This document shows positions 11,491 through 47,571 of a stretch of DNA of 64,000 nt, piece after piece. The notes below the pieces were generated by a model. It searched no databases. It saw only the letters and a program-made list of their open reading frames with translations, and was not told the origin of the DNA. Source of the stretch: an uncultured delta proteobacterium (GTDB lineage Bacteria; Desulfobacterota; Desulfobacteria; Desulfobacterales; Desulfosarcinaceae); NCBI GenBank assembly GCA_963697225.1, contig CAVONM010000013.1:42375-106374 (forward strand), in the 5' to 3' direction. Positions within the stretch are counted from its first letter, which is position 1. Every line of letters starts with the position of its first letter. A program made the position numbers and the translations under genes.

Positions 11491-12384
11491 ATGACCGATA
11501 GGCCAGATTCGCGATTGCCAGAAAAACCACCGGTCGTCTTGGGCCTGCTGGGCGGCCTCGCCGTCTTTGTTTCAGCCTTTTGTTTTTACTTCTCCACAGT
11601 CGTGATTCGTTGGTCCCGTGAGGGGGTGGCCATCGATTCCGCCTATTTCGCTTTTTTCCGATTCTTGCTGGGATTTGCAGTGGTCTGTGTGATCATGGGT
11701 GTGCGCCGGCAGAAACCGGCCCCCAGGCGCTATCATCTTCTCATCGGCCGCACACTGGGAAACTGCATTGCCGTGTATTGTTTTTACCAGGCGGTGCGCT
11801 ACACCTCGGTGGTCGAGGCCAATATTTTGAACATGACCTATCCCATCTTCGTGGCCATCCTGTCCTGGATCCTGCTGCGCCGCCAGCGGGATGCGGTTGC
11901 CGTGGCCATGGTGGTGGTGGCCATTGCCGGGGTCTGGCTGATTCTTCAGCCCGGCCGCATGGGCATGGGTGTCCACAGTCTCTGGGGATTGAGTTCGGGG
12001 ATCAGTGCGGCCGTTTCCATTTTCTATTTAAATCTCAGCCGGCAGCACCACGATGCCAACACCGTCCTGTTTTACATGTTCGGCCTGGGATCGGTGTTGA
12101 TGTTTCTCTTCTTCCGGGAGCATTTCTTCTGGCCGAATGGCCGTGAGCTATATTATCTGACGCTGTGCGGCGGGGCTGGCATTGCCGGCCAGTTTCTGAT
12201 CACCCTTGGGTTTCGCTATGTCACGGCCGTGGAGGGCGGCGTCATCTCCTCGACACGGATATTGCTGGCCGGCATACTGGGGCCGTGGTTGGTGGCGGAT
12301 CCTTCTTTGGGAACGGCTGGATGGATGGGTGCCTTGCTGATCTTCGGGGCCAACGTGGTGCTTGCTGTTCGCAAAGGCCGCTGA
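11491..12384 (+). CDS. EamA/DMT-family transporter (10 TM)
   Basis: Two EamA-like hydrophobic halves. Transcribed divergently from the fusion gene. Start chosen at MTDRPD. Confidence 0.7.
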   Translation: MTDRPDSRLPEKPPVVLGLLGGLAVFVSAFCFYFSTVVIRWSREGVAIDSAYFAFFRFLLGFAVVCVIMGVRRQKPAPRRYHLLIGRTLGNCIAVYCFYQAVRYTSVVEANILNMTYPIFVAILSWILLRRQRDAVAVAMVVVAIAGVWLILQPGRMGMGVHSLWGLSSGISAAVSIFYLNLSRQHHDANTVLFYMFGLGSVLMFLFFREHFFWPNGRELYYLTLCGGAGIAGQFLITLGFRYVTAVEGGVISSTRILLAGILGPWLVADPSLGTAGWMGALLIFGANVVLAVRKGR

Positions 12385-12455
12385 CGCGACCGGCTTTCCT
12401 ACCGGTGCATCACCGGCGGATACCAATGATCCCCCAAACGGAAAACACAGCCGAT

Positions 12456-15400
12456 TTACCTGGGCCTGGCCACGTGCCAAATCATATCCGTCCGGTTTCC
12501 GGAGGTCAGGCAGGTGAGTATTTCGAATCCGCATTTGTCGAGGGTGGTGCGGATTGCCGTTTGGCTGCGGCAGCAAGCCTGACGTCCGCCTATTCTGAGC
12601 GCCAAATGCACTAGCTGCCGGCGCCAGTGGGGTCTGTTCGACCGGGGCAGCAGCGATCGCATGATCAGACGACCACCGGGAAGCAGGCGCTCATGGATGC
12701 GTTCCAGGGTTTTTTCCAACTCCCAGTCCTGCAGGAAGTGACCTACGTCGATCATGGTCGCCAGATTCAGCAGCACATCCATTGCCGGCAAATCGGGTGC
12801 GGATCCCCTGACGATGCGCCCCTGTTCGCCCAACACCAGGGCAGCCACCCGCACCCGCTCGGGCTGCGGATCGATGCCGTGGATGGTGGCGTGGGGATAA
12901 TGCTCGGCCAGCCAGCAGGCCGACACGCCGTACCCGCAGCCCACATCCAGGATGTTGGCCAGGTCGGTTTTTTTCGGCACCAGTGCCGCCAGCTCACTCA
13001 AGAGCGGGTCCACCCGTTGCGAGTAGTGGGCAAACAGGCGCGGGCAGGGCGCCATGTTGCGGTAGCGCCAGGCGACGCCTTCGGCGGCTGGGGGTGGATT
13101 TTCGAACCGTCGTTTCAACAAAGGGGGCAGGATCAGCAGCGTGCCGACAAGGCAATAGCCGATGCCGAAAAAGGAGATCTGTCCGGCGCTTTTCAACAGA
13201 TCATGATCGGCGCCCCAGATTGCGGCAGCACCCACCAGGGTGCAACCGGCGGCCATGACCAGTGCCGTTCGAACCACCGAGAAACAGGGATTGTCGAACC
13301 GCTGGTAGCGCTGGTATCCCCGGACCATGAGCAGGGGACTGCATACGCCCACGCCCAGTATGATTACCGACAGCAGCATCAGTGCGGTGAGGTTTAGTGG
13401 GTGGCCCAACATGCCCATGGTGCCCAACGTACAAATATAGGCGAAGGCCGGGGGCAGCAGGGCAATGAGCAGCAGGCCCATATCGGCCATATAGAAGGCC
13501 AGCAGAAAGGTCAGGACTGCCCCGATGAGCAGCAGCATCGCGATAAGTCCATCGTACAGCCGTTTTTCCATGCGTTGGGAGAGGTGTGCCGGATCGAATA
13601 TAGCCGATATGTCGGATATCCGGTCGTAAAATCGCTGGTTGTCAAAGTGCACACGGGGGGTGATGCGGGTTACCTGGCGCCATTGACCGTCGTTTCCGTC
13701 CCTATGGATACCCAGCAGCGTCTGTACGCTCGGCGGGATGGTGGTCGGGTGGGGGGATGCGGCGGTGATCATGGTCAAAAACGGGTCAAATACACCCTCG
13801 GCAAACCCCTGGGCCGCGCCTTCCCGATTCACCGCCGCGCTGACCATGCGGACGCGTTCCGCGGTCCAGAATTGGTTCCAGGCGTCGAAATTGTCTGCGC
13901 TGCGGCTGCGTCCGGGCCAAAACAGGGATGGTGTCAATGCCTTTTCGATGCTGCCGGCGTGGGTTTCGGTTTCGAGTCGCTCCAGCAACCGGTCGTTTTT
14001 GGCCTGAAGGGCGGCCAGGTCGTTTGCCTCGGTCACCAGATAGACGCTGGAAAAAATGTCACCCCACACACGGGTGATCAATTCCTCCGCCGCACGCGTT
14101 TCCCGGCTGACGCCGCTCATGGCTTTCGGGTCCGTGGCAATGTGGGGCCGGATGAAAAGGGACAGCCCCACCGCAGTCAACAGGGCCAACGCCAGTCCCG
14201 GCCAGCCGGCTGAAAAGAGACGGCCCAGCAGCCGTGGAAAACGGCGTTCGGCAGGCACCGCACGGTGCTGGTCGTCCGTCAGGATCCGGGGGAAGACGGT
14301 GTGGACGAACAGGCAGGAAAAGCCGATCCCCATTGCAGTAACCCACCCTATTTGTTCGAAAACGGCAACGCCGCGGGCGGCCATGGCGCCGAAGACACCG
14401 ATGGTGGTGAGCACGGCCGGCAGCCCGATGGCCCGGATTTCACGGGAGGCCTGCCTTGTCCGTTTTTTACCGCCATTGTCGACAAAGAGCATGTAGGCGA
14501 TGCCGTGGTGTATGGTGATCGAAACCATTACACTCCCGAAGCCCAGTACCATGATGGAAATGCTGTCGTGACTCAATGAAAAGACGAAAACGGCCATGAC
14601 TGTCCCGACCAGTGCCGGCAACAGGGCCAACAGTCCCGCCAGAGGATTGGAAAAGGCGGCCAGCAGCAGTACACCGATGCCCACCGCGGTCCACCGGATG
14701 GCCCGATGCACGTCCCGTTTAACGATGGTTTCGTTGTCCAGGGTGGAACGAAAGGTTCCTGCGGTGGTCAGGGTGATCCCACTGCCGATATTTTGTTTCA
14801 GGCCCTCATCCAGTTCGTGGAAGAATCCTGTCAGGGCGCGCGCCACGGTCGTGTCCGTGCCGTGACCGATCGGGGTGGCCAGGATCAGCAGGTGGCGGTG
14901 GTCGGCGGAGAGAAAACGGCCGCGGTGAATGGTCGTCCCGGGTGTTGGATTCATGGCGGCCAGTCGGGAGAGGATGCTCTGGCGCAGACCCAGCGGGTCG
15001 GTGGCCAATGCCGATGCTGGACTGATGCCGGCCATCCGGTTGTGGTCAGCCCCGCTCCTGGTCAGGGCTTGATGAATTGCCTCGTCGGTCAACAACGGGG
15101 CGACCTGCTGCGCCAACTCCCCCGCGGTAAACAATACAGGCAGATGATGGCAGACCAGATCCGCCAGATCGACAAGTCCCTGCTGCATAGACGGATGTTG
15201 CCTCTGCGCGAACAGGTCGCTTTGCTTCATCCGGTTTTCGACCATTTCTGCGGCGGCGACCAGTCGTGACATATCCCCCTTGATGGATTCGATGTCGATG
15301 GCGATTTGATTGGTTTTTATGATGCCCAGTCCGTCGGCAATCTCAGGGTTGTCCGTGAACAGCGGGCCTGGCATGTCATTATCGATGGTGATGCGGTTGA

Positions 15401-17521: not shown

Positions 17522-18289
17522 TTATGCCGGCAGGATGACTTCCAGTTCGATTTTGGAGAAGTCGTCCTTGCGAAGGGACAGGTGGTAGCCACGCACCTTG
17601 ATGTTGATCCTGTCATCGGAGGCCTTCACCTCCTCCAGTTCAATGATACTGCCAGGGGTGATGTCCAACTCCTTTAGCTTGTCCACGATGGTGCCTTTGC
17701 CTCTGACGCGGATCAGTCGGGCGACCTGACCCGACTCGAGGCTTTCCAGGGTGATCGTTTCCCGCCTGGCCTGTTGAAACTGCCGTTGACGTTTTTTTAG
17801 ATCATCCATGCATCGGGTGATGGCGTTCTCACACCCGGACAGGGCATTGTCCTTCTCGCAGAACTGGCGAAACCCCCCGATCCACTCCTCCCCCCCGCGG
17901 GGGCATATCTGGATGAACTCCACGAAGCGCACCAACCGGTCGATGATGGTCGGCGAAACGGCATGCTCCATCTTGCAGGCGGTGTCTTCCGCCTCCCGCT
18001 CCTCCACATCCAGCACTTTGGTGAAAAAATCCTTGAGGATTTCGTGGCGGCGTACAATGTCCCGGGCCAGGATTTCACCGCGGGGAGTCAGGGTGATCAC
18101 GTCGTAAGGGGCGTAGTTGATGTGGCCTTTTTCCGCCAACAGCCGCAGGGCGCCGGTGACCGAGGCACTGTTGACCGCCATGCGGACAGCAATGTCCTTT
18201 GCCCGTGCGGCCTTTTTACCGGAGACGATATGGTATATGGCCTCCAGATAATCCTCCATACTGGCGCTCAGTCGCTTGCTTTTCGGCAT
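17522..18289 (-). CDS. DtxR/IdeR-family metal-dependent transcriptional repressor with a C-terminal FeoA/SH3-like domain and a Cys-rich insert
   Basis: N-terminal HTH (MEDYLEAIYHIV...), metal-site residues ACKMEHAV, C-terminal SH3-like LESGQVARLIRV. An extra segment reads CPRGGEEW...CEKDNALSGCENAITRC. Confidence 0.8.
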   Translation of the reverse strand: MPKSKRLSASMEDYLEAIYHIVSGKKAARAKDIAVRMAVNSASVTGALRLLAEKGHINYAPYDVITLTPRGEILARDIVRRHEILKDFFTKVLDVEEREAEDTACKMEHAVSPTIIDRLVRFVEFIQICPRGGEEWIGGFRQFCEKDNALSGCENAITRCMDDLKKRQRQFQQARRETITLESLESGQVARLIRVRGKGTIVDKLKELDITPGSIIELEEVKASDDRINIKVRGYHLSLRKDDFSKIELEVILPA

Positions 18290-18372: not shown

Positions 18373-18520
18373 GCGGGATTCCAATCGTCCGCGGAGTGTA
18401 CACGGGCGGTTGAAAATGTGTCAAGATGATTTTGGAAGCCCTAAAAAAGCAAGGAACGTCAATCACATGGACCCCAAAACGGTGGCTTGCCGGACCCGCT
18501 AAGCCCACAAGGAGGAACCG

Positions 18521-20154: not shown

Positions 20155-21090
20155 CTACTCAAGTCGAGAGACCAGCTCTGCAGCCGTTGAACAGTTCTCA
20201 CCGCCGGCCGCTTCGATACTCCGTCGATAATTATGGCTGGCTCGTCCGCCGACCACCAGCGGGAATCCATTATTCAGCAAGTCAGACAGGCGGGTGAGTT
20301 CGTCTTGCATGAAGGCATCATCGACGCGACAGGTGATGCTCAGGGCAATCATTTCCGCGCCAGGGATAGAACAGGCAGCGGCGATCTCTTCAGCCGGCAG
20401 ATTAAAACCTAAAAAGACCGGTTCCCAACCGTGATCCTGTGCAGTAACGGCTACGGCCAGAGCGCCCAGGTAACAGCACTGGCCGGCCGGTGCGGCGATC
20501 AGCAAGCATGGCTTTTCAGCGGCATCGCCGGTGGGATGACTCAGCAAGCCAATGAGTTGCGCATGAATGACGACCGAGGCCATCTGTCCATGAACAATCC
20601 GCAATGATCCATCAGACCACCTGCGGCCAACCTGCTCCATGAGCGGACAGAATATCGTGTCAATCAAGGCTTGACGGCTGAAGGCCGCGGCTGCCTGCCG
20701 CAGTATGCCCTGCAGCGCCTTGCCGTCAAGCATGGCAACGGCTTCTAAACTATGGCTGACTATCTCAGTTGGGGCGATGCCGGCGGGCATTTTTGAATCG
20801 TCGTGAGTTGGCTCGTTGGGCTGGATGGCGGGTGGTGTGGTGGGTTCCGCCAGCTCGACCAATTGGGCCCGATCGAGACCGGCAATGTGCGATATGCTGT
20901 GGCCATTCTGGATCACCCGTCTGAGCAGGACGAGGCGGTCGATGTCCGACTGGCTGAACAATCGGCGGCCATTGGCCAACCGCTGCGGCGCAACCGCATG
21001 GTATCGGCGTTCCCATGCCCGGATCACATGGGTGGAAAGACCGGTGTGTAAACTGACAAAGCCAATCGGAAAGGCAACCGGACCGGGCAT
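20155..21090 (-). CDS. MerR-family regulator with a C-terminal cobalamin (B12)-binding domain (CarH/LitR-like)
   Basis: N-terminal MerR HTH (FPIGFVSLHTGLSTHVIRAWERRY). C-terminal B12-binding Rossmann-like domain (LLIAAPAGQCCYLGALAVAVTAQDHGWEPVFLG...). Confidence 0.7.
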   Translation of the reverse strand: MPGPVAFPIGFVSLHTGLSTHVIRAWERRYHAVAPQRLANGRRLFSQSDIDRLVLLRRVIQNGHSISHIAGLDRAQLVELAEPTTPPAIQPNEPTHDDSKMPAGIAPTEIVSHSLEAVAMLDGKALQGILRQAAAAFSRQALIDTIFCPLMEQVGRRWSDGSLRIVHGQMASVVIHAQLIGLLSHPTGDAAEKPCLLIAAPAGQCCYLGALAVAVTAQDHGWEPVFLGFNLPAEEIAAACSIPGAEMIALSITCRVDDAFMQDELTRLSDLLNNGFPLVVGGRASHNYRRSIEAAGGENCSTAAELVSRLE

Positions 21091-21529
21091 CGTATCTACT
21101 CCATTCGAGAAAAATGTGGCCTCGCGCAAACGATCCCATGAATGCTTAGCGCCCCGCCTGTCGTCGATGACCCATCATGCATAGCAAAACACACTTTTCA
21201 TTGTTGACAATTTGCCCGCTACCCCACCAAAAGCAGCAGGGGTAGTTTCTGTAGTGGCGGCTTTTCCGAGTTCATCGACGCTGGCGGGCCCGATTTTATT
21301 CGTCGACAAGTTTGGAAATGGCCAGCGCGCAGGCATTCACGGCTTCATCAGGTCCATCCAAGTTGATGATATGATTTTCAAGATCAAAATCTACAATCGT
21401 GCAGCCATGGTTTTCAACCGTCATCTTGATTACATTCAAAAATGTTGCTTCATCCATAAGAGTCATCCTTCCCATCCGTCATCCTGCGACAAAAAGGATT
21501 GCCGGTGACAGATTTACGTCAATGTTGGG

Positions 21530-21742
21530 TCAAATTGATTCGACCAACCTATTTGCCTGGGGCACATCTGTCAAGATGCATGAACCCGCGAAAGCTGCCC
21601 GAAAAATGGGGCACGGGGAACCGGAGATCCCCGTGCGTGATCGAGTCAGAACCATCAAATCGTTGGGGCAAATGTACATGCATGCAGTTTTGTCCCCGCC
21701 TTTGCAACCATCGCATTTTTCAGCGATTACGAAACTAGGCAT
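21530..21742 (-). pseudogene. Remnant of the adenylylsulfate reductase beta subunit (AprB-like N-terminus only, about 32 matching residues)
   Basis: MPSFVIAEKCDGCKGGDKTACMYICPNDLMVL matches the AprB N-terminal [4Fe-4S] region. The sequence then diverges and stops. A strong GGAGG lies before the ATG. No aprA follows. Confidence 0.45.
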
Positions 21743-22206
21743 ATAACCTCCTTGCCTGTTCGGGTTAAATGTGACGCGCATCCTCGGTGCCGAAACAGTT
21801 GCAGATGGCACTATGATTTATGCCATGCCCATCATGGCACTCCAATAAAATAGGGCAGCGGGCGCGTGTGTCAATGTTTTGTCTAGTTAGAGGACTCAGT
21901 TTGTTGGGTAGTCGCCCATTGATCGACGCGGGCATCTCGTTTCCACCGAAGACTAACGGCAGCCGATTCTTCTTGTGCATCAGGCGCGACTCTCCGAACC
22001 ATTCAGAGTGGCATGCGGATTACCCGGCTTCCGATCAGAAAGGGCTCAATGCTCATGCGGCGAAACCAACCAAATGGTGAAGGCGTCTCGATTTTTCAGG
22101 CCGACAAAAAAACGAATTGCCAATGTCAAAATTGTGTTTAATATCTGTCTAACAAAACTTATTAATTTTGCTTATTCACCTTAACGATAAAATAATTGTG
22201 AAGATA

Positions 22207-38015: not shown

Positions 38016-40511
38016 TTAACAGGCCAGAGGCATCCGATCCGTATCACATTCATCGCCGGCACCGATGTCCGCGGGGGAACCGCCGTCTTTTGACGCTTTG
38101 CCATCAGGCTGGTCGGCGAACGCCTCGGCGATGGCTTCGTCAATGCGGTCCACGGTCACAAAGGTCATCTCGCTGCGGACCTCATCAGGCAGCTCTTCAA
38201 CGTCGGAGTTATTCCGCCGCGGCAGAATCACCGTTTTCAGTCCGGCGCGATGGGCTGCCAGCGCTTTCATCTTGATGCCGCCAACCGGAAGCACTCGGCC
38301 GCGAAGCGTTATTTCACCGGTCATGCCGACATCGCTGCGAACAGGTTTGTCGCTGAAAAGGCTGGCCAGGGTCATGACCATGGCCACGCCTGCCGAGGGA
38401 CCGTCTTTGGGCAGCGCACCGGCTGGGACATGCACGTGCACATCCGAATTTTGGAAGGCAGACGGATCGATGCCCAACAGTTCTGCTTTCGTTCGCACAT
38501 AGCTGAGTGCAATTTCGGCACTCTCTTTCATCACACTGCCCAACTGACCCGTCAGGGAGAGTCGGCCTTTGCCCGGCATGCGAGATGCCTCGATGTAAAG
38601 AATATCACCCCCGACCGATGTTACCGCCAGACCGGTAGCGATTCCCGGCACATTAAAGGTTTCCGATCGCTCGGCGTCGAAACGCTCCTTCTTCAAATAA
38701 TCACGAACCATCTGTTCCGTTACCACCACATGAGACCACCCCTTTTCGCTCAGCGCCACGATGCCTTTGCGGCAGATGGCAGCGATATGCCGCTCGAGAT
38801 TTCGCACACCGGCCTCGCGGGTATAGTCGTGGATAATTTTCAAGACGGCATCCTCCACAAAGGTAACCTCGTCATCCGCTAACCGATGCGACTTGAGCTG
38901 ACGGGGAATAAGGTGCCGTCGGGCAATCTGATGCTTTTCGAGCGCCGTGTACCCATCGATATGGATGATTTCCATGCGGTCTCTCAGCGGGCCCGGTATG
39001 GTGTCCAGCCCATTGGCCGTAGCGATAAAAATGACTTCGCTGAGATCGAAGTCCACATCCAGGTAGTGATCGCGAAAGGTGCTGTTTTGCGCCGGGTCCA
39101 GGACCTCCAGCAGCGCGCTGCTGGGGTCGCCACGCCAGCCCTGACCGATCTTGTCGATTTCGTCGAGCATAAACACCGGATTGCGGGTGCCCGCCCGTTT
39201 GATTGACTGGATAATTCGTCCGGGCATCGCTCCGATATAGGTACGACGATGGCCGCGTATTTCGGCCTCATCCCTGACGCCTCCCAGACTCATACGGGTA
39301 AATTTGCGGCCCAGGGCACGCGCCACGCTGCGTCCCAAACTGGTCTTGCCGACGCCCGGAGGGCCGACCAGACACAAAATTACGCCCATGGCGGACTTTT
39401 CTTCAGCCTCGTTCTGCGCCCCTTTTCGGTCCTCTACAAGACTCCTCACGGCAATGTATTCGATCAGGCGTTCTTTGATTTCCTCCAGGCCATAGTGGTC
39501 CTCATCCAGAATGCGCCGCGCGTCGGCAATGTCACCGCTGTCGTCGCTTAGTTGTCCCCAAGGCAGATCGATCAGCCAGTCAAGGTAGGTCTTGATGATC
39601 GGATACTCTGCCGATTGGGGAGGCATTTGCTGCATGCGTTCCATTTCGCGGACCGCTTCCTTTCGCGCTTCATCGGGCATGTCTGAACCCTCGATCCGCT
39701 CGGCGTAATCATCCGACTCCGACGAGGGGTCATCGGTTTCGCCCAATTCCTTTTTTATGGCCTTGAGCTGTTGCCTCAAAAAGTAATCCCGTTGCGATTT
39801 GCTCATTTTTTCTTGAACTTCGGACTTTATTTTTTTTCCGATGTTGAGCATTTCCTTTTCGCGCGACAAATGCGAAAGAAGCACACGAATTTTCTGAGAC
39901 ACACTGTCGATCTCGAGCAACTCCTGCCGCACTTCCGTGGTCAGATTCATGTTGAATGTCGTAACGTAGGTCAGCTGAAGCGGATCGCTGATGCGCGATA
40001 TCGTCTCGGCGGCCTCTTTTGAAGAATTCGGGGTCATTGCCAGCACTTCAAATACCGTGTCACGCAACTGGCGTTGCAGCACCTCCAACTCGATACCCGT
40101 TTCCACGATCTCCGGGGCGTGAAGCACACTCGCCTTGAGGTGCGGGCCACCGGTTTGCCAAGTGGACACCTTGAACCTGCGGATTCCGTTCAACAAGGCG
40201 ACCATGACACCCTCTTCATTTTTTTTGGCATGCAGAATCTTGGCAATGGTTCCAACCTCATAAAGTTGACCCGGTACGGGATGTTCGATTGCCGGGTCCT
40301 TGACCGTCAGCAGCCCAACCGTCCGATCCGCTTTCATGGCATCGTCGATCATAGATGCTGAACTGAAGGAGATCATGAACGGCACACTCATCTGAGGAAA
40401 CGCCACCATGCTGCGAACCGGCAAAATGGGTATGATGTCCTGAGCGTCGGTCTTGACTTCGATCATGTCGTCTTCGTTGCTGCTTATAACCTCATTTGTG
40501 TCTAATTTCAT
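38016..40511 (-). CDS. lon: ATP-dependent Lon protease (La)
   Basis: Lon N-terminal domain. AAA+ Walker A GPPGVGKTSLGRS. Protease catalytic region PKDGPSAGVAMVMTLAS. 831 aa. Confidence 0.95.
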   Translation of the reverse strand: MKLDTNEVISSNEDDMIEVKTDAQDIIPILPVRSMVAFPQMSVPFMISFSSASMIDDAMKADRTVGLLTVKDPAIEHPVPGQLYEVGTIAKILHAKKNEEGVMVALLNGIRRFKVSTWQTGGPHLKASVLHAPEIVETGIELEVLQRQLRDTVFEVLAMTPNSSKEAAETISRISDPLQLTYVTTFNMNLTTEVRQELLEIDSVSQKIRVLLSHLSREKEMLNIGKKIKSEVQEKMSKSQRDYFLRQQLKAIKKELGETDDPSSESDDYAERIEGSDMPDEARKEAVREMERMQQMPPQSAEYPIIKTYLDWLIDLPWGQLSDDSGDIADARRILDEDHYGLEEIKERLIEYIAVRSLVEDRKGAQNEAEEKSAMGVILCLVGPPGVGKTSLGRSVARALGRKFTRMSLGGVRDEAEIRGHRRTYIGAMPGRIIQSIKRAGTRNPVFMLDEIDKIGQGWRGDPSSALLEVLDPAQNSTFRDHYLDVDFDLSEVIFIATANGLDTIPGPLRDRMEIIHIDGYTALEKHQIARRHLIPRQLKSHRLADDEVTFVEDAVLKIIHDYTREAGVRNLERHIAAICRKGIVALSEKGWSHVVVTEQMVRDYLKKERFDAERSETFNVPGIATGLAVTSVGGDILYIEASRMPGKGRLSLTGQLGSVMKESAEIALSYVRTKAELLGIDPSAFQNSDVHVHVPAGALPKDGPSAGVAMVMTLASLFSDKPVRSDVGMTGEITLRGRVLPVGGIKMKALAAHRAGLKTVILPRRNNSDVEELPDEVRSEMTFVTVDRIDEAIAEAFADQPDGKASKDGGSPADIGAGDECDTDRMPLAC

Positions 40512-40609
40512 AGTAACACCTCAGTGTTTGGGTTTGATCGATGCCTCTTTAAATTTATGAAATATATGTTAAACATTATCTTGACATTGGCAATCGGTTT
40601 TTTTATTAT

Positions 40610-41569
40610 TTGTTCATGAACTTAAAGTCTACCTACACCATCAAATATGTTGCGTCGAAAACAGGGTTGAAGCCTTACCTGATTCGGAGTTGGGAAATGC
40701 GTTATCAGGCAATTTGCCCGCAGCGATCCGACAGCAATCGCCGATGTTTCACCGATAACGATGTCAAGCGATTGAGATTGCTCAAGCTAGCGGTGGACGA
40801 AGGGCATCCCATCTCCGCAGTCGCCAAAAGGAGCAGCGATGAACTCAGCCGCCTGCTGGGACGGGGTTTCGCCTTGGTCAATTGTGACGACACCACCGAT
40901 TTCGGTACTGCATCCAGTGGTTTTGCCGACGGCGCAATGGCTGCGCAATTCGTCGAACAAGCGCTATCGCATATCATTCGACTGAACCCGTCGGCGTTGG
41001 AGCATGTGCTGAATGGTGCGGCTGTCGACATGCCCCGACAATCATTTTTGCAAACGGTGGTGTTGCCCCTGTTTGAAAGAATCGGTGAGCTCTGGCGCCT
41101 CGGTAAATTGAAGACCATCAACGAACACATGGCATCGATCGTTGTCCGTACCATTTTATGGGATATGCTGCGCAGCGTCCACCTATCCGAGGCAGCCCCC
41201 AGGATCGTTGTTGCCACACCTGTGGGCCACTGGCATGAACTGGGAGCCTTGGCTTCAGCGCTGGCGGCGTCTGAATCGGGTTGGCGCGTCTATTATTTTG
41301 GCCCCAACCTCCCGGCTGAGGAGATCGCCTATGCGGCCAAAAAATTCAGTGTCAGGGCCTTGGCCCTGAGCCTCTGTCACCTGGTTAACGATCACCGCCT
41401 GAGTGGTGAACTGAAAAAACTCCGTCGTTTGGTCGGCAGCGACCTGCCGATCTTTATCGGCGGGCCGGGTACCGAACCGGTTCGCCAGACCCTCGTGCAA
41501 ATCAACGCGGTATCGGGTATCAATCTGGGTGGATTCAGGGATAAGCTCGAAGCGTTGGCCAAGGCGTGA
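40610..41569 (+). CDS. MerR-family regulator with C-terminal B12-binding domain (second CarH/LitR-like paralog)
   Basis: MerR HTH (YTIKYVASKTGLKPYLIRSWEMRY) plus a B12-binding-like C-terminal half (IVVATPVGHWHELGALASALAASESGWRVYYFG). Confidence 0.7.
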   Translation: MFMNLKSTYTIKYVASKTGLKPYLIRSWEMRYQAICPQRSDSNRRCFTDNDVKRLRLLKLAVDEGHPISAVAKRSSDELSRLLGRGFALVNCDDTTDFGTASSGFADGAMAAQFVEQALSHIIRLNPSALEHVLNGAAVDMPRQSFLQTVVLPLFERIGELWRLGKLKTINEHMASIVVRTILWDMLRSVHLSEAAPRIVVATPVGHWHELGALASALAASESGWRVYYFGPNLPAEEIAYAAKKFSVRALALSLCHLVNDHRLSGELKKLRRLVGSDLPIFIGGPGTEPVRQTLVQINAVSGINLGGFRDKLEALAKA

Positions 41570-41693
41570 GCCGCCTTTGTCAATCGGTGCCGCAAGGCTT
41601 CATGCAGAAAATCGATTGTGGTCATTTTGATCGGGGCGGGGAGACAGATGTGAAATGGCCGTCAGCAATCCTTCCGGCTGACGGCCATATGCT

Positions 41694-41984
41694 CTACTGG
41701 ACCGGTTTCATGCCGTGCACCTCTGTAAATGCGTCCCACTCATCGACGCCGACTTCACCATCACCGTTGGTGTCGATCATGTCAAAACCGGAGCGCCATT
41801 TTTCCACGTTGGGCGTGATGAACTCGTTGAATGTCAACACACCATCGCTGTCCTTGTCCAACGCTGTCATGTCCCAAACCATACTCATATCCCCGTGCCC
41901 GCCGTAATGGTGTCCGGCAAATGCGATAAACGGCAGCGTCAAGGCTACCATTGCCAGTACCACTGCATATCTTTTAACTTTCAT
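41694..41984 (-). CDS. Secreted EF-hand calcium-binding protein
   Basis: Signal peptide plus two canonical EF loops, DKDSDGVLTFNEF and DTNGDGEVGVDEW. Confidence 0.65.
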   Translation of the reverse strand: MKVKRYAVVLAMVALTLPFIAFAGHHYGGHGDMSMVWDMTALDKDSDGVLTFNEFITPNVEKWRSGFDMIDTNGDGEVGVDEWDAFTEVHGMKPVQ

Positions 41985-42012
41985 ACGGACCTCCCAGCTC
42001 ACATGTGGAGCA

Positions 42013-42800
42013 TTATTGGTGAAAAGTTAAACAAATATTAAACTTCAGATGCCATTTGTCAATGGTGATCGATTGAACTGAGATGGCGAGCGCATTCCCC
42101 GCCGCTTGTCGAAGCGAAGTAGAGATTCCGCTCATCTTGTGGATATAGTTGGCAGATGAGACGTAGGGTTTGGTTGCCACCATGCCGCCATCGGCGAACT
42201 GGCTCATTCCTCGGGTGTTAACGATCTCCACCCACTGAACGGCATCGATATAGACGCCCAGATACCAGTTGTCGACTTCATTTGGGTGGACACCTGCCAA
42301 GAGGGCGAAATTGCCGGTGATCATCAATCGATAGATGTGCTGGGCGACATCGCTGCGGGACGTTAAAAAATGCTCCGCGTCAACGACGGTCGATGGAACG
42401 GTCAGGCGTGATGCGAGGTCTGCGGGCTCGATGTCGAGGCGGTATTCGCCCGGTTGCATGTCTTCAAAGCGATCCACCTGCTGCTCCTTGATCAATCGGG
42501 CCAGATTGCGCTTAAAGGATCGTTCATTGTGTGGGTCATCCAGGCGAAGGTACACCAAACGGTGTCCCTGGCGTGAGAGGGCCGCGCCGAAATGGCGCAT
42601 GGCGCTGAAAAACACTGAATGGGGTGCTTAACGGAGTCCGTCTCCTGGCGCACTTCCATGAGCGTGTAAATGGTGTCTTTGCGAACCTTCTCGAACCAGC
42701 TGTGTTGCGCGTTGAGTTGGTTGCCGGGGATCAATCGAAGGGTTACGCTTCTCTTCATCAGTGTTCCTCCCCAAATGTTTGGCGGCCATGTGGGGTTCAA
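42013..42800 (-). pseudogene. Decayed cryptochrome/photolyase-related (COG3046-type) gene with an internal deletion and a frameshift
   Basis: One frame encodes an N-terminal-like MKRSVTLRLIPGNQL... Another frame gives FFSAMRHFGAALSRQGHRLVY... joined directly to the C-terminal signature RLMITGNFALLAGV...WVEIVNTRGMSQFADGGMVATKPYVSSANYIHKMSG. About 250 aa of the roughly 500-aa family length are present. Confidence 0.45.
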
Positions 42801-43351
42801 TTACCGGTCGTGGGACCGGGTTGATGCTGGGTGTGTCATTGACAAGAATGCTTGGTGACGAGAACCAACATAGTATAAACACCGGTAAACGACCAATAAT
42901 TCTCCTCAGGACGTTGATTAAGACCTGCGCGTTGCCTGTTGAGGTTAATTCTCGATAGGCCACCATTCGTATTCTTTTCGAGCTGGTAGTATTTCGCCAT
43001 CATTTTAACCGAAATCAGTCATCATTGCGGATTCATCCTAACTAGTTAAATTGTTAAATATATGAATAATTTTATTCATCCCAATCTTAAGGCACAAGCC
43101 TGCATTTGATTCTGAACGAAGATGAGAATCAACTGACAATTTCAAGTCGCTTTCTGAAATGTTGAGGATATTTAGAATGATTGTATTTTTCATAATCTAC
43201 ACAGTTTTTTTCATAATCGCGTCTGCCGCTGGTTGGAGTGTCGCATCGTCAATGTGACTCTCCGGATCTACTGAAGCATCCGCATCTTGTTTTTAGAGGC
43301 GATGCTTGTTGTTTGGCCCAGCATTTTTAAAAGTACTTTCAGGTCATATTT

Positions 43352-43651
43352 ATGATTCAAAGGCGCACGATCGGCATCATTGGCAAGGGAAACGTCGGCG
43401 TGGCTGTGGCGTATGCCATTTTCTTGCAGGCAAGGGCCAATGAAATTATCCTGATCGATAAAAACCGGAAAAAAGCCGAAGGTGAGGCCATGGATCTTAC
43501 CCACGGGCAGGCCTTTGTCGAAAAGACGGTCGTTCATGTTGGGGACTATTCCGATCTTGCCGCGGCTCAGATAGTTATCATCACTGCCGGTGTTGCTCAA
43601 CAGCCGGGCGAACACCGTATCGACATTGACTTGGCAGACATCGACTTGTAG
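43352..43651 (+). pseudogene. ldh: N-terminal fragment (99 aa) of an L-lactate/malate dehydrogenase
   Basis: IGIIGKGNVGVAVAYAIFLQARANEIILIDKNRKKAEGEAMDLTHGQAF...IVIITAGVAQQPGEHRIDI is the LDH NAD-binding N-terminus. The ORF stops about 210 aa early. It sits in an AT-rich pocket. Confidence 0.55.
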
Positions 43652-43718
43652 TATCTCACCTTTTCGTGCATGATCCTGATTGTGGGTTATCGGCACACGC
43701 TGGAAGGTAAAAAATAGG

Positions 43719-44084
43719 ATGATTGAACAGAAAAGAAGACAACACCCCCGCTGTATGGAAGACACGGCAGTCAACTATCATTTCTTGAACCATTCAACGC
43801 AGCATGAGGCGATCGCGCGGAATTATAGTCGTTTCGGCATGTATTTCGAGGCGCAGCGCTCATTGTCACCGGGAACGATTATCGTCCTACGCAGATACGG
43901 ATGCAAAGATCCTGTCGACCCTGATCTTGCACCTGCTTACTGTTCCGGGGACCGTGAGGCTTCAGAAGCATGCCAGGAACTAAAGACGCAAGTATTTGGT
44001 GAAGTCAAGCGCAGTGAGATGCTTAAGGGGACGACGGAGGAGCGCTTTGGTATCGCTGTCCGTTACATTGGGCCGGCAACATAG
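43719..44084 (+). CDS. Hypothetical protein, possibly PilZ-like
   Basis: RRQHPR...NYSRFGMYFE is loosely similar to PilZ RxxxR / DxSxxG motifs. Weak. Confidence 0.25.
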   Translation: MIEQKRRQHPRCMEDTAVNYHFLNHSTQHEAIARNYSRFGMYFEAQRSLSPGTIIVLRRYGCKDPVDPDLAPAYCSGDREASEACQELKTQVFGEVKRSEMLKGTTEERFGIAVRYIGPAT

Positions 44085-44093
44085 TCCATTCAG

Positions 44094-44807
44094 GTGCGAA
44101 ATTGCTATCCTGACTTTTCATGGATTTCTTTAAGCTTTCAAAACTGTCTGGATAAATGGCAAATGTGTATTAAGACCGTCTCGAGACTCTTACTATGCAC
44201 AATATCGTTCATTTTTTTGAATGGCTTCGTCGGTATGCCAATTCATCCTGCCACTGCTGAACCCGATGCTGAAGAGCTGCTCAACAAACAACGGATTGTA
44301 TACAGAATAAAACCGGAAAGAAGAGGTGGAGAGGCATTCAAACTGATTTACCTCGTACCGGTTCCGGTCGATGTTTTCTGGAGGTTCAAGACCGACTTTG
44401 GTGGTGATTTCCTTCTCAGCAACAGATACATAAAGGAACATCGGCTTATCCTTGAGTCGGGCAATGCCACCGTCACTGAGAACAGCTACTCGAACGCGCC
44501 AAACGAGACGTTCAGATGGCATACGACCCTGTATCCCGATCAACACCGCTTGGATTTCCAGTTGGAAAACCCCCGGGAATGCGGGCAAAAGTTCCACTAT
44601 GGCACGATACGAATGGAACCATTCCGATCATACACCAAAGTCACCCACACGGCTTACTTTGATTTTTTCGGTGCATTTATCTGGGTTAATCTTCGCATCG
44701 CAGGCGGCATGACCTCATTTTTAATGTACACCGCCCGTTGGGAAAGGGATACTGTTTTGCGCTTACGGCACCGATACGAGACTGAACCCTCCCCGCGGCC
44801 GCGATGA
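44094..44807 (+). CDS. Hypothetical secreted protein
   Basis: Signal-peptide-like segment LLLCTISFIFLNGFVGMPIHPATA. No domain recognised. Confidence 0.3.
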   Translation: MRNCYPDFSWISLSFQNCLDKWQMCIKTVSRLLLCTISFIFLNGFVGMPIHPATAEPDAEELLNKQRIVYRIKPERRGGEAFKLIYLVPVPVDVFWRFKTDFGGDFLLSNRYIKEHRLILESGNATVTENSYSNAPNETFRWHTTLYPDQHRLDFQLENPRECGQKFHYGTIRMEPFRSYTKVTHTAYFDFFGAFIWVNLRIAGGMTSFLMYTARWERDTVLRLRHRYETEPSPRPR

Positions 44808-44956
44808 GCGGAATCTCTGCTGTTGCCCCGACAAGGGGCGGGGAATGTGCTCGCTATCGCGGTTCAGCAGGTCAAATGAAGGACTCGAACGCTTGACCAG
44901 ATGCGCCGCACCATAGAAACTGTTAAGACTTCCTTTTATTTCTTCGGGTAACGATT

Positions 44957-45529
44957 GTGAAGGTTTCAATGCGATTGTTCATTTTGTCATTCATTTCAGG
45001 CCTGCTGTCTTACCTCTCGGTTTCATTGCCGCATCTGTTATCCGCTTGGTTTAACCTGTCAGATGATGCCTTTTTTATTCTTCCCGGGTTGTTTTTCGGT
45101 ATGCTCGTCCTCGCACCACGCGTCAATAACGCAAAATTCCGCGCTCTGCGACGCGTGGGCTTGCTGATTTTCAGCTTAGGCGCATGGTATGTGGCGGTGA
45201 CGGTTGGATTCCAGGTGTTACCGTGGGTCCATCAATTGGCGATGCTGTCGTGTGGAATATCGGGAAGTATCGGTGTGCTTCTGCTTATTGCAGCAAGCCG
45301 CTATCTCGTGCCTTTGAATTTGAGTGTTTCTTCTCTTCTGATTGCTCTGCTCGTTGGTTTTATCGGCGGCGGTATCATCGGCATGGCCCTCGTGCAGCCA
45401 AGGACCAGCTTGTCCAGTGAATTGCTCTATTTTTTTGGTTTTCTATTTTGGCATTGCGGTGTTGCCTGGGCGCTTTTAGGCAGACCACGGACCACCGGCA
45501 GCAACAGACCGAGGCGCACTGCGGCATAA
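44957..45529 (+). CDS. Hypothetical polytopic membrane protein (5 predicted TM, several intramembrane His)
   Basis: Hydrophobicity pattern. Lies 300 nt upstream of sdhA on the same strand. Confidence 0.4.
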   Translation: MKVSMRLFILSFISGLLSYLSVSLPHLLSAWFNLSDDAFFILPGLFFGMLVLAPRVNNAKFRALRRVGLLIFSLGAWYVAVTVGFQVLPWVHQLAMLSCGISGSIGVLLLIAASRYLVPLNLSVSSLLIALLVGFIGGGIIGMALVQPRTSLSSELLYFFGFLFWHCGVAWALLGRPRTTGSNRPRRTAA

Positions 45530-45828
45530 ATCGCGCAGCTGCCTGCTAAGGTCTGATCCACCATACCAGACAACCCAATGGGACAGCCGAGAGTGGGGCC
45601 TTGGAAAATATCGAATCGCGAATGCTCGCCTTTCACCCTGAAAAAATTGTTGTGACAATGATCACACAACGCTTCAGTACCACATTTTCAGTTGCTCTGG
45701 AAACAACGTTGGATGAAGATGGAACGAAACGTCGATGTCTTTCTCGGCGTAGGCCCAAAAAAATCCTTGTCTGAATCCTGCGCAATTGGTTTAATGCCGG
45801 ATAATATAACGATTCCAACCACAGGGAG

Positions 45829-47571
45829 GTGCCCGTGATCCATCAATTCGACACGGTAATCGTCGGCTCCGGCGGTGCCGGTCTTTATGCCGCACTGGAA
45901 GCCAGCCAGCAATCCAAAACGGCGGTTCTTTCCAAGCTTTACCCGATCCGCAGCCATACCGGTGCTGCCCAGGGTGGCATCAGCGCCGCATTGGGCAATG
46001 TGGAGGAGGACAAACCCGAATGGCACGCCTTCGACACGGTTAAGGGCGGTGACTACCTCGTTGATCAGCAGGCGGCCAAAATACTTACCGAAGAGGCTGT
46101 CCAGGCAGTCTATGATCTGGAGAACCGCGGCCTGCCATTTAACCGTACACCCGAGGGACGCATCGACCAGCGCCGCTTCGGCGGCCATACGCGCAATTTT
46201 GGCGAAGGCCCCGTTCGTCGGGCCTGCTATGCGGCCGATCGTACGGGTCACATGATCCTGCAGACACTCTATCAGCAGTGTATCAAAAACGAAGTGGCTT
46301 TTTTCGACGAGTTTCAGGTTGTGGATCTGCTCCTGGACGGGACCACCACCCAGGGGGTCGTGGCCGTGGAACTGGCCACCGGTGAGCTGCATGTCTTCGC
46401 CGCCAAGGCCGTCCTGTTCGCAACCGGCGGGTTCGGGCGCATCTTCAAGATCACCTCCAACGCCTACGCCAACACGGGTGACGGCCCGGCGGTATGCGCC
46501 CGGCGAGGGATTCCCTTAGAGGACATGGAGTTCTTCCAGTTTCACCCCACCGGCATCATGGGGTTGGGCATCCTGATTTCCGAAGCGGTGCGCGGGGAAG
46601 GCGGCATCCTGCGCAACCGGGACGGGGAGCGCTTCATGCAGCGCTACTCGCCGACGCTGCTGGATCTGGCCCCCCGCGACATCGTCGCCCGGTCCATACT
46701 GACCGAGATCCGCGCCGGCCAGGGGATTCGCGGGGATCGCAAGATCGATGACTACGTCCATCTGGACGCCACACACCTGGGCAAGGCGGTCCTGGCCAGC
46801 AAACTGCCCGACATCACCGGCTTCTGTAAGACATATCTGGGTATCGATCCGGCCGAGACGCCCATACCGGTGCTGCCTACGGCGCATTATGCCATGGGCG
46901 GAATCCCCACGGATGTTCACGGGCGGGTGATCATGGACGCTGCCGGAACCATTGTCGACGGCCTATACGCGGCCGGGGAGTGTGCATGCGTTTCCGTGCA
47001 TGGGGCCAACCGTTTAGGGACCAACAGCCTGCTCGACCTGGTGGTGTTCGGCCGGCGGGCCGGTCAGCACATCGGCGGCTATGTTAAGCAGGCCGACATG
47101 CCCCAGCCGAACGCAACCGCCGCCGACGAGGCGCGTGCCTTTATCGATCGCTTGACCGACGGCTCATCCGGACCCCACGGTGGGCACATCACGGATGAGA
47201 TGCAGACCACCATGATGGAAAAGGTGGGGATTTATCGCAACGAGAAGGAGATGCAGGCGGCCGTGGATGACATTCAGGCGCTGCGGCAGCGCTACCGGTC
47301 CGTGCGCGTCCAGGACACCGCCAAGCCGTTCAACACCGACCTGCTCGAAATTATCGAGCTGGGCAACCTGCTGGATCTGTCGCTGCTGACGGCAACGGCA
47401 GCCCTCGATCGCCGGGAAAGCCGCGGGGCTCACAGCCGGGAGGATTTCTCGGAAAGGGACGACGGCGACTGGCTCAAGCACTCCCTGGCCTATCTGGAAG
47501 GGGACACGGTCAGGCTTGACTACAAAGCGGTAGACACAAGCATTTGGGAACCCAAACCGCGCACCTATTGA
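45829..47571 (+). CDS. sdhA: Succinate dehydrogenase / fumarate reductase flavoprotein subunit
   Basis: [16 protein letters not shown] motif. The [10 protein letters not shown] histidine is the covalent FAD-attachment site. 580 aa. Confidence 0.95.

Follow-up and report, generated by a model that had tools for sequence, protein, structure and literature searches.

A probable cluster of pseudogene remnants beside a CarH-like regulator gene in a Desulfosarcina-type sulfate reducer

In a 64,000-nucleotide stretch of DNA from an uncultured delta proteobacterium of the Desulfosarcinaceae (contig CAVONM010000013.1; hereafter called the window), positions 42013–43651 carry short open reading frames (ORFs) that resemble parts of a photolyase-related gene (phr) and of a lactate dehydrogenase gene (ldh). 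These ORFs lie between the genes for a CarH-like MerR/B12-binding regulator and an EF-hand protein on one side, and the sdhAB operon on the other. Do they encode small functional proteins, mark a place where foreign DNA once entered, reflect a faulty assembly or represent genes in decay? A first-pass annotation made from the letters alone had proposed either a light-response module in erosion or an old integration site. We consider it highly likely that these are clustered remains of pseudogenes, in an accessory-gene pocket prone to deletion that is located between the Lon/CarH-like/EF-hand genes and sdhAB of a Desulfosarcina-type sulfate reducer. The process at work is ordinary gene decay, not a new kind of system.

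Intact orthologs occupy the same locus in relatives

Syntenic loci were sought by using the neighbouring MerR/B12 regulator as the query, with one genome per species. Eight loci were returned (L002–L009; regulator identity 80–93%), which derive from uncultured ‘delta proteobacterium’, Desulfosarcina sp. and Desulfobacteraceae metagenome-assembled genomes (MAGs) and from the complete genome of an isolate, Desulfosarcina alkanivorans PL12 (L009). Further loci, including L010 and L025, were added by a metagenome scan and exact-protein look-ups. The gene order Lon (minus strand), CarH-like regulator (plus), EF-hand protein (minus), variable pocket and sdhAB (plus) is common to all loci, and the order Lon, CarH-like, EF-hand, phr, (ldh), ..., sdhAB is kept in L002–L009, L010 and L025.

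An uninterrupted 514-codon phr ortholog is present at the same position, between the EF-hand gene and ldh or the next gene, in seven related genomes (L002–L007 and L010). Moreover, L002 carries at this locus an intact gene for a 313-amino-acid L-lactate dehydrogenase (L-LDH). Because phr is intact in seven relatives and L-LDH is intact in L002, the window copies are decayed orthologs, as the erosion proposed in the first-pass annotation implied. The junctions were located at the nucleotide level against L002. In a blastn map against this genome, the flanking core genes exhibit 91–96% nucleotide identity and the pocket roughly 84%, and the window is without approximately 3.3 kb that was lost in six events within 4 kb.

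Anatomy of the photolyase remnant

On homology, the minus-strand region 42013–42758 is the remnant of a gene of the FeS-BCP/CryPro (6-4) photolyase type (COG3046, PF04244). The family PF04244 (DPRP, ‘deoxyribodipyrimidine photo-lyase-related protein’) matches two overlapping minus-strand ORFs between 42013 and 42800, with profile positions 1–42 residing in ORF 42492–42800 and positions 46–138 (E = 1.3e-21) in ORF 42013–42615. A complete DPRP domain is thus absent from the remnant (1–42 and 46–138 of 224 positions, in two frames); the L002 ortholog covers positions 1–222. A codon map was obtained by tblastn with a full-length 514-amino-acid homolog as the query, and the surviving pieces and the junctions between them are as follows.

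42615–42758, minus strand: phr codons 1–48, beginning with ATG at 42758–42756, in frame −3 (tblastn) and out of frame with the rest
42613–42620: site of a 10-bp frameshift deletion, between 42615 and 42616 (MAFFT alignment)
42337–42618, minus strand: phr codons 51–144, part of the N-terminal alpha/beta DPRP domain, in frame −2 (tblastn)
42334–42345: junction of a 681-bp (227-codon) in-frame deletion that removed codons 145–371 (blastn against L002)
42130–42345, minus strand: phr codons 369–440, the conserved C-terminal helical segment ...ITGNFALLAG...KPYVSSANYIHKMS, in frame −2 (tblastn)
42129–42136: junction of a 284-bp 3′ deletion that removed codons 441–514, the stop codon and about 59 nucleotides of intergenic DNA (blastn)
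42013–42129, minus strand: read-through tail of a chimeric 200-codon ORF, which in relatives is non-coding and corresponds to a hairpin element plus the EF-hand gene promoter

In total, 211 of the 514 codons (41%) survive; the first reading had put the remaining length at about half. Its further claim that N- and C-terminal signatures lie in different frames holds for the first 48 codons only, whereas the N-domain and C-terminal pieces are joined in frame. At the frameshift site, six orthologs show aaaaacCCGGCTATTTTTtgaatg where the window shows aaaaacac----------tgaatg (MAFFT). The 681-bp junction falls in an imperfect 10–12-nucleotide microhomology, GTG(C/G)TGGGC, which encodes A(Q/R)H and AHH, and the blastn segments on its two sides overlap by 12 nucleotides. 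Likewise, the 284-bp junction carries an 8-nucleotide microhomology, GATGAGCG, matched by an 8-nucleotide overlap of the blastn segments, and in relatives its GATGAGCGG motif also marks where the hairpin element starts on the 5′ side.

The piece spanning codons 369–440 is 88% identical to the tblastn reference and 94% identical to L002 at the nucleotide level. It supplies the C-terminal half of the 200-codon ORF with a conserved block of the photolyase family, ‘...RLMITGNFALLAG...TKPYVSSANYIHKMS’, for which database matches of 75–96% identity are named ‘deoxyribodipyrimidine photolyase-related protein’. Residues 163–200 of this ORF, its final 38 codons, match the phr/EF-hand intergenic region of L002–L009. 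The remnant has no single ORF of about 500–520 amino acids, and its longest one, of 200 codons, ends in this former intergenic DNA.

The intact orthologs (514 amino acids) resemble the FeS-BCP (6-4) photolyases, aligning over their full length with the Vibrio cholerae enzyme (7YKN, E = 3.6e-177) and also with Agrobacterium PhrB (4DJA) and Rhodobacter sphaeroides CryB (3ZXS). Four cysteines, Cys355, Cys443, Cys446 and Cys459, are invariant in the seven orthologs, with the spacing C355-X87-C443-X2-C446-X12-C459. This spacing matches that of the Fe-S ligands of PhrB. All four of these Fe-S cysteines fall within the deleted segments and are missing from the window remnant. Moreover, with codons 145–371 deleted, codons 369–440 are the sole remainder of the C-terminal half, and the deleted middle presumably made up most of the FAD-binding helical domain, judging from the PhrB and CryB structures. 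In contrast to the FeS-BCP photolyases, therefore, the window copy is frameshifted, has no middle segment and has none of the four cysteines, and it is not a member enzyme.

Changes outside the junctions point in the same direction. The ratio of nonsynonymous to synonymous substitution rates (dN/dS) is 0.19–0.30 for the window phr against its orthologs, compared with 0.06–0.17 among the intact orthologs. Furthermore, at 183 positions that are invariant in the seven orthologs, the window exhibits 15 private replacements (for example, L11P, Y42S, H46P and L115P), compared with one to four in each intact ortholog. The higher dN/dS together with the excess of private replacements indicates that constraint on the remnant has been relaxed. 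The photolyase remnant is a pseudogene.

The hairpin element, of about 63 nucleotides, occurs twice in the window in inverted orientation (42074–42136 and 44803–44866), in each case between the end of a gene (phr or a 237-codon ORF) and the promoter that follows. Compensatory changes distinguish the inner stems of the two copies (GCUUCGACAAGC versus GCCCCGACAAGGGGC), and the element is tandemly doubled in L003, L005 and L007. The 284-bp deletion at the 3′ end of phr ends exactly at the 5′ edge of the element.

An internal deletion in the ldh gene

The second remnant lies on the opposite strand, beyond an AT-rich tract.

43352–43651, plus strand: in-frame internal-deletion allele of an L-lactate dehydrogenase gene, 99 codons (Pfam, NCBIfam)

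The ORF matches positions 3–90 of 141 of Ldh_1_N (E = 4.5e-21), and its best NCBIfam models are L-LDH, at positions 5–95 of 316. The intact 313-amino-acid protein of L002, which starts at the homologous position, contains both the Ldh_1_N and the Ldh_1_C domains. The first-pass annotation had described the first 99 codons of a dehydrogenase that ends abruptly. The ORF is indeed a fragment, but it consists of codons 1–92, a 7-nucleotide filler (43624–43630) and the native last six codons and stop (LADIDL*), so that the end is authentic and the loss internal. The net loss is 642 bp, or 214 codons (93–306), in frame.

Comparison with bacterial L-LDH (TIGR01771/PRK00066) shows what is kept and what is gone. 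The N-terminal 92 residues, including the GxGxxG motif (GIIGKGNVG), match the NAD-binding domain, and Rossmann coverage is limited to the Ldh_1_N positions given above. This fragment is more than 90% identical to Desulfosarcina L-LDHs of 313 amino acids, and clustering at 90% identity groups the 99-amino-acid product chiefly with 313-amino-acid proteins named ‘L-lactate dehydrogenase [Desulfosarcina sp.]’. However, the fragment scores 99 bits against a family cut-off of 339, with residues 93–306 deleted. The catalytic and substrate motifs and the Ldh_1_C domain are absent from the window gene: DTGR (149), GEHGD (174) and Ldh_1_C (146–309) of the L002 protein all fall in the deleted codons. In L-LDH, DTGR holds the substrate arginine and GEHGD the catalytic histidine. 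From these losses, neither the ldh nor the phr remnant is predicted to be able to make an active enzyme. The ldh gene is entirely absent from L003, L004, L006 and L007.

A 43-nucleotide inverted similarity (77%) is found between 42414–42456 in the phr remnant (QPGEYRLDIEPADLA) and 43601–43643 at the ldh junction (QPGEHRIDIDLADID). The 7-nucleotide filler at that junction, CATTGAC, might have been templated from the phr-remnant side of this similarity, or the resemblance may be a coincidence.

Further losses and apparently intact genes in the pocket

The distance to sdhAB had been put at roughly 2 kb. The stretch from the EF-hand gene to sdhA is in fact 3.8 kb long in the window, and it contains three apparently intact genes and a further relic.

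43719–44084, 44094–44807 and 44957–45529, plus strand: three apparently intact conserved hypothetical genes (77–91% amino acid identity)
45561–45655, plus strand: relic of an MTHFR-like gene, 95 bp (261 amino acids in L002; blastn against L002)

Between a 190-codon ORF and sdhA, L002 carries genes for the MTHFR-like protein (261 amino acids), a DUF423 protein and an SRPBCC protein (L002 16608–18242). In the window, only the MTHFR-like relic remains, where tblastn matches residues 47–78 of the protein to 45571–45666. Deletions of roughly 252 bp and 1437 bp lie on its two sides, and they also removed the DUF423 and SRPBCC genes that precede sdhA in L002 and L005. The identity values of the three hypothetical genes refer to their counterparts in L002, L004, L005 and L007. 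No Pfam family was found for any of the three, even at E ≤ 5, and a first impression that 43719–44084 is PilZ-like is unsupported.

Lesions in relatives indicate a pocket that is unstable clade-wide

Losses at this locus are not confined to the window. The syntenic loci and more distant ones exhibit the following states.

L009 (isolate PL12), 11606–12769, minus strand: 388-amino-acid in-frame phr variant without 126 codons of the N-domain
L008: phr absent
L025, 5869–7409 and 8971–9266: phr with a frameshift near codon 170, plus fused relics of two genes
L003: relics of the MTHFR-like and DUF423 genes
L026, 1–2189: two tandem phr copies, one of them truncated
L005, 13743–14408: a different in-frame ldh deletion of 92 codons (35–126), giving a 221-amino-acid product
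L014 and L016–L018 (about 70% regulator identity): Lon/CarH-like/EF-hand kept, no phr nearby

The L025 fusion joins codons 1–41 of the ‘PilZ-position’ ORF to codons 216–261 of the MTHFR-like gene. Genomes whose locus lost its photolyase, or never contained one, still keep the Lon/CarH-like/EF-hand trio. The pocket resembles known deletional decay of non-essential bacterial genes, which is marked by the same short-homology deletions, relaxed dN/dS and lineage-specific losses. One oddity sets it apart from ordinary decay: synteny revealed four large deletions within genes (phr and ldh of the window, ldh of L005 and phr of L009), and every one of them is in frame, for which the chance is approximately (1/3)^4 = 0.012.

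This bias speaks in favour of neofunctionalized mini-genes, an explanation in which the 154–200-amino-acid fusion of the photolyase N-piece and C-terminal piece and the 99-amino-acid Rossmann fragment of LDH might be expressed and serve a new role. Both ORFs are predicted by gene callers, and the ldh remnant keeps its start, GxGxxG motif and native stop. Yet the photolyase remnant has lost its native start frame, its constraint is relaxed and its C terminus is translated from non-coding DNA. The deletion also differs in each lineage, with no short form conserved. Moreover, the in-frame bias may stem from microhomology where two similar peptide motifs are encoded in one and the same codon phase (AQH/AHH, IY.LM/FY.FM and EIIL/DIL). 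We therefore hold a new role for the shortened products to be very unlikely, and we favour pseudogene decay, under which ORFs 42013–42615, 42492–42800 and 43352–43651 should be flagged as pseudogene fragments rather than proteins. The value of this correction lies chiefly in annotation.

Two further interrupted genes were noted in relatives. A more distant, non-syntenic photolyase homolog at L001 9230–10774, preceded by a PAS-domain gene, is split by a single in-frame stop into ORFs of 234 and 257 amino acids. The sdhA gene at L005 18239–19979 is split over two frames in a long-read MAG, most likely by a sequencing frameshift. Small indels in long-read MAGs, including the 1-nucleotide differences upstream of phr, should be read with caution.

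Could the remnants be assembly artefacts?

Several facts weigh against gene decay. The source is probably a MAG, and the reading is drawn from assembled sequence with 64 kb of the genome in view. The remnant protein was found on a single 307-kb contig, an exact-protein look-up of the remnant returned no place on record, and a degenerate pattern specific to the junction gave no matches in metagenome contigs and no second assembly with the junction. Small indels in the sister MAGs can be sequencing errors, as exemplified by the split SdhA of L005. In addition, both large intragenic deletions in the window are in frame and leave ORFs, which gives a small chance that the shortened proteins are expressed.

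Some of these facts would fit a collapsed or chimeric long-read metagenome assembly in which the genes are really intact, namely the single contig, the fruitless junction-specific search and the probable frameshift error in the L005 sdhA; the relatives are also MAGs from the same type of project. However, such an artefact would have to account for six separate lesions with microhomology junctions, and for an excess of amino acid replacements outside the junctions that assembly errors would not produce. It is also at odds with the same lesion type in a complete isolate genome (L009), and with a frame-changing indel upstream of phr on a contig of L006 whose ‘k141_’ name we assume to be that of a short-read assembler. 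An artefact of assembly or sequencing is, in our judgement, highly improbable.

A model for the decay of the pocket

For gene decay, the comparisons demonstrate the deletions, their junctions, synteny with intact orthologs and the relaxed constraint, and the microhomology suggests how the deletions arose. According to the model, an ancestor would have carried at this locus a functional 514-amino-acid gene of the FeS-BCP (6-4)-photolyase type and a 313-amino-acid L-LDH gene, with MTHFR-like, DUF423 and SRPBCC genes further downstream. Selection on the pocket genes would then have lapsed in the window lineage, perhaps because light-driven repair and this LDH are not needed in a dark, anoxic habitat. 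Short-homology deletions of the slippage or illegitimate-recombination type might have removed the approximately 3.3 kb in six events. In this way phr would have lost its reading frame after codon 48, codons 145–371, and codons 441–514 with the stop codon, and ldh would have lost 214 codons including the C-terminal domain and the GEHGD motif.

The AT-rich tract and the region upstream of phr

42960–43340: AT-rich tract (GC 0.30–0.47), the usual intergenic DNA between the divergently oriented photolyase and ldh genes
42759–43040, minus strand: conserved non-coding region upstream of the phr start, strongly conserved in the seven genomes compared

The GC drop that the first-pass annotation had placed at 42960–43340 is present, with values of 0.305–0.395 at 42900–43300 against about 0.55 in the flanks. 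Such a fall, down to about 0.31 in a genome of about 0.55, together with a gene content that varies between species, could be expected of an old integration scar of a mobile element or island, with the tract as foreign DNA that disrupted its neighbours. Nevertheless, the tract is collinear with the intergenic region of L002, L003, L005 and L006, relatives with an intact phr, at 82–86% identity over the spanning alignments. Rfam models at gathering thresholds and ARAGORN found no known RNA and no tRNA in the window, none of the scanned ORFs of the pocket encodes an integrase or transposase, and a repeat scan of 40400–46000 revealed no direct-repeat pair that brackets the tract. The lesions are, besides, deletions inside genes rather than insertions. 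Since the tract is collinear in relatives and these scans gave no tRNA, integrase or flanking direct repeats, the integration-site reading proposed earlier is unsupported, and we give it almost no credence.

Instead of a scar, the tract together with the roughly 280-nucleotide stretch upstream of phr is an old regulatory region that is largely intact. This upstream stretch, probably a promoter plus leader, diverges less than the synonymous sites of phr and holds a nearly invariant 47-nucleotide block, GCAATGATGACTGATTTCGGTTAAAATGATGGCG, with one or two substitutions in L003, L004 and L007. RNAalifold revealed no supportive covariation in the stretch (covariation term +2.25).

Two ORFs in these regions were considered as genes and rejected. 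ORF 43038–43193 in the AT-rich tract belongs to no family, and tblastn gave no match in L002–L009 at E ≤ 1e-4, and one weak 26-residue match in L025. Four relatives have an uninterrupted version of a 107-codon ORF upstream of phr, but frameshifts break it in three genomes and its dN/dS is close to 1.

The CarH-like regulator and its targets

The first-pass annotation also noted that CarH/LitR-type regulators classically control photolyase and photoprotection genes, which raises the question of such control here. Both neighbours of the remnant are intact in the window.

40616–41569, plus strand: CarH-like MerR/B12-binding regulator gene, 317 amino acids, intact (Pfam MerR_1, B12-binding and B12-binding_2)
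40555–40587, plus strand: CarH-type operator on the regulator’s own promoter, three 11-bp repeats (pattern score)
41694–41984, minus strand: EF-hand protein gene, intact, secreted-looking, 96 amino acids from ATG (Pfam EF-hand matches; conserved in all loci)
42027–42062, minus strand: promoter of the EF-hand gene, TTGACA at 42062–42057 and TAATAT at 42040–42035 (alignment)

The regulator carries PF13411, PF02607 and PF02310, all above their cut-offs. Its match to the NCBIfam CarH model (E = 1.3e-30) reaches 106.6 bits against a curated cut-off of 400, and the regulator is therefore a distant CarH-like protein, not an equivalog. The best solved relative is Thermus thermophilus CarH (TtCarH; PDB 3WHP and 5C8D). 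The motifs GELW, NEH, GHWH and GPNLP align with TtCarH residues (W131, E141, H142 and H177) and provide the GxxW/EH/GxxH/GxxxP signature of light-responsive cobalamin domains (PMC11796333). From these features, the regulator is a good CarH candidate.

CarH operators consist of three or four tandem 11-bp repeats, nnnnTnnACAn, that overlap the −35 or −10 element (PMC9304148). The window operator holds the repeats GAAATA (degenerate), TAAACA and TTGACA, of which the last is the −35 element, and scores 10/12. In every relative, even those whose regulators are 59–72% identical, TAAACA-N5-TAAACA-N5-TTGACA precedes the regulator gene, again with the last repeat as the −35 element (12/12 or 11/12, and 12/12 in most). 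Across the 64-kb window (128,000 positions) there is a single 12/12 site (22155–22123, minus strand) and a single 11/12 site.

A second conserved piece lies at the EF-hand gene, which resides downstream of the photolyase remnant in the same orientation and has a conserved ribosome-binding site and ATG. Two CarH-type repeats, the 17-nucleotide TTAAACAAATATTAAAC at 42027–42043, overlap the −10 element of its promoter. This two-repeat piece is kept in nearly all loci, with a chance expectation in the window of 0.02. Eight relatives were scanned for CarH operators upstream of phr with a threshold of 10/12, and none of them has one; the window has a 10/12 site at 43187, which is not conserved, and one of 9/12 at 42942. 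By these patterns, the CarH-like protein seems to have two conserved cis targets, its own gene and that of the EF-hand protein. Physical linkage between this regulator and the photolyase gene is genuine and recurs, but direct CarH control of this photolyase is unproven.

The regulator shares the MerR and B12-binding domains and the signature with CarH/LitR proteins (T. thermophilus 5C8D, and Bacillus megaterium and myxobacterial CarH), and the T. thermophilus CarH also uses tandem repeats that include the −35 element of its own promoter. Unlike those systems, the host is a strict anaerobe, no carotenoid genes are nearby, and the conserved targets do not seem to extend from the regulator and the small EF-hand gene to phr.

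A more speculative reading, which we consider unlikely although worth stating, is that the Lon/CarH-like/EF-hand trio, present across Desulfosarcina-type strict anaerobes, is the conserved unit and not a photoprotection module. In that case, a repressor of the adenosylcobalamin-photoreceptor type would autoregulate and control a small secreted Ca-binding protein, and the photolyase would be an accessory gene that is repeatedly lost, by deletions biased to stay in frame, in lineages that have moved away from light-exposed sediment surfaces. If this is true, a regulator that is kept without the photolyase would either respond to a signal different from damaging light, such as B12 status or redox, or drive light avoidance.

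For the favoured reading of gene decay, the distribution of the photolyase is mildly informative. Uncultured Desulfosarcina relatives commonly keep an intact Fe-S (6-4) photolyase beside a CarH-type B12 photoreceptor regulator, which is unexpected for strict anaerobes. A literature search found no paper connecting photolyase with Desulfosarcina. Independent loss of the photolyase, with the regulator kept, is under way in several lineages, among them the isolate D. alkanivorans PL12. These genomes offer a natural set of present, decayed and absent genotypes with which one could test the importance of light responses for sulfate reducers in sediment.

A second MerR/B12 paralog is encoded at 20155–21129 (minus strand) in the window and shares 34% identity with the CarH-like regulator. 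Its GxxW motif is retained, but EH is replaced by GQ and the cobalt-ligating His by Cys (GQCC versus GHWH). The window’s only perfect operator of three TnnACA repeats (22123–22155, minus strand), TAGACA-N5-TAAACA-N5-TTGACA, lies about 1 kb upstream of this paralog on the same strand, and is followed by the same TTGACATTGGCAAT promoter core as that of the first regulator. Downstream of this operator, a small ORF at 21530–21811 (minus strand) starts MPSFVIAEKCDGCKGGDKTACMYICPNDLM, for which Pfam returned nothing. This start resembles the N terminus of the APS reductase beta subunit (AprB), which the rest of the ORF does not match; the ORF may encode a small Cys-rich protein or be one more gene fragment. 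The 11/12 operator match at 18392–18428 (minus strand), TTGACA-N5-TCAACC-N5-TGTACA, which may be due to chance, is found about 135 nucleotides upstream of a 255-amino-acid ORF (17522–18289) that, judged by eye only, resembles an iron-dependent (DtxR-like) repressor.

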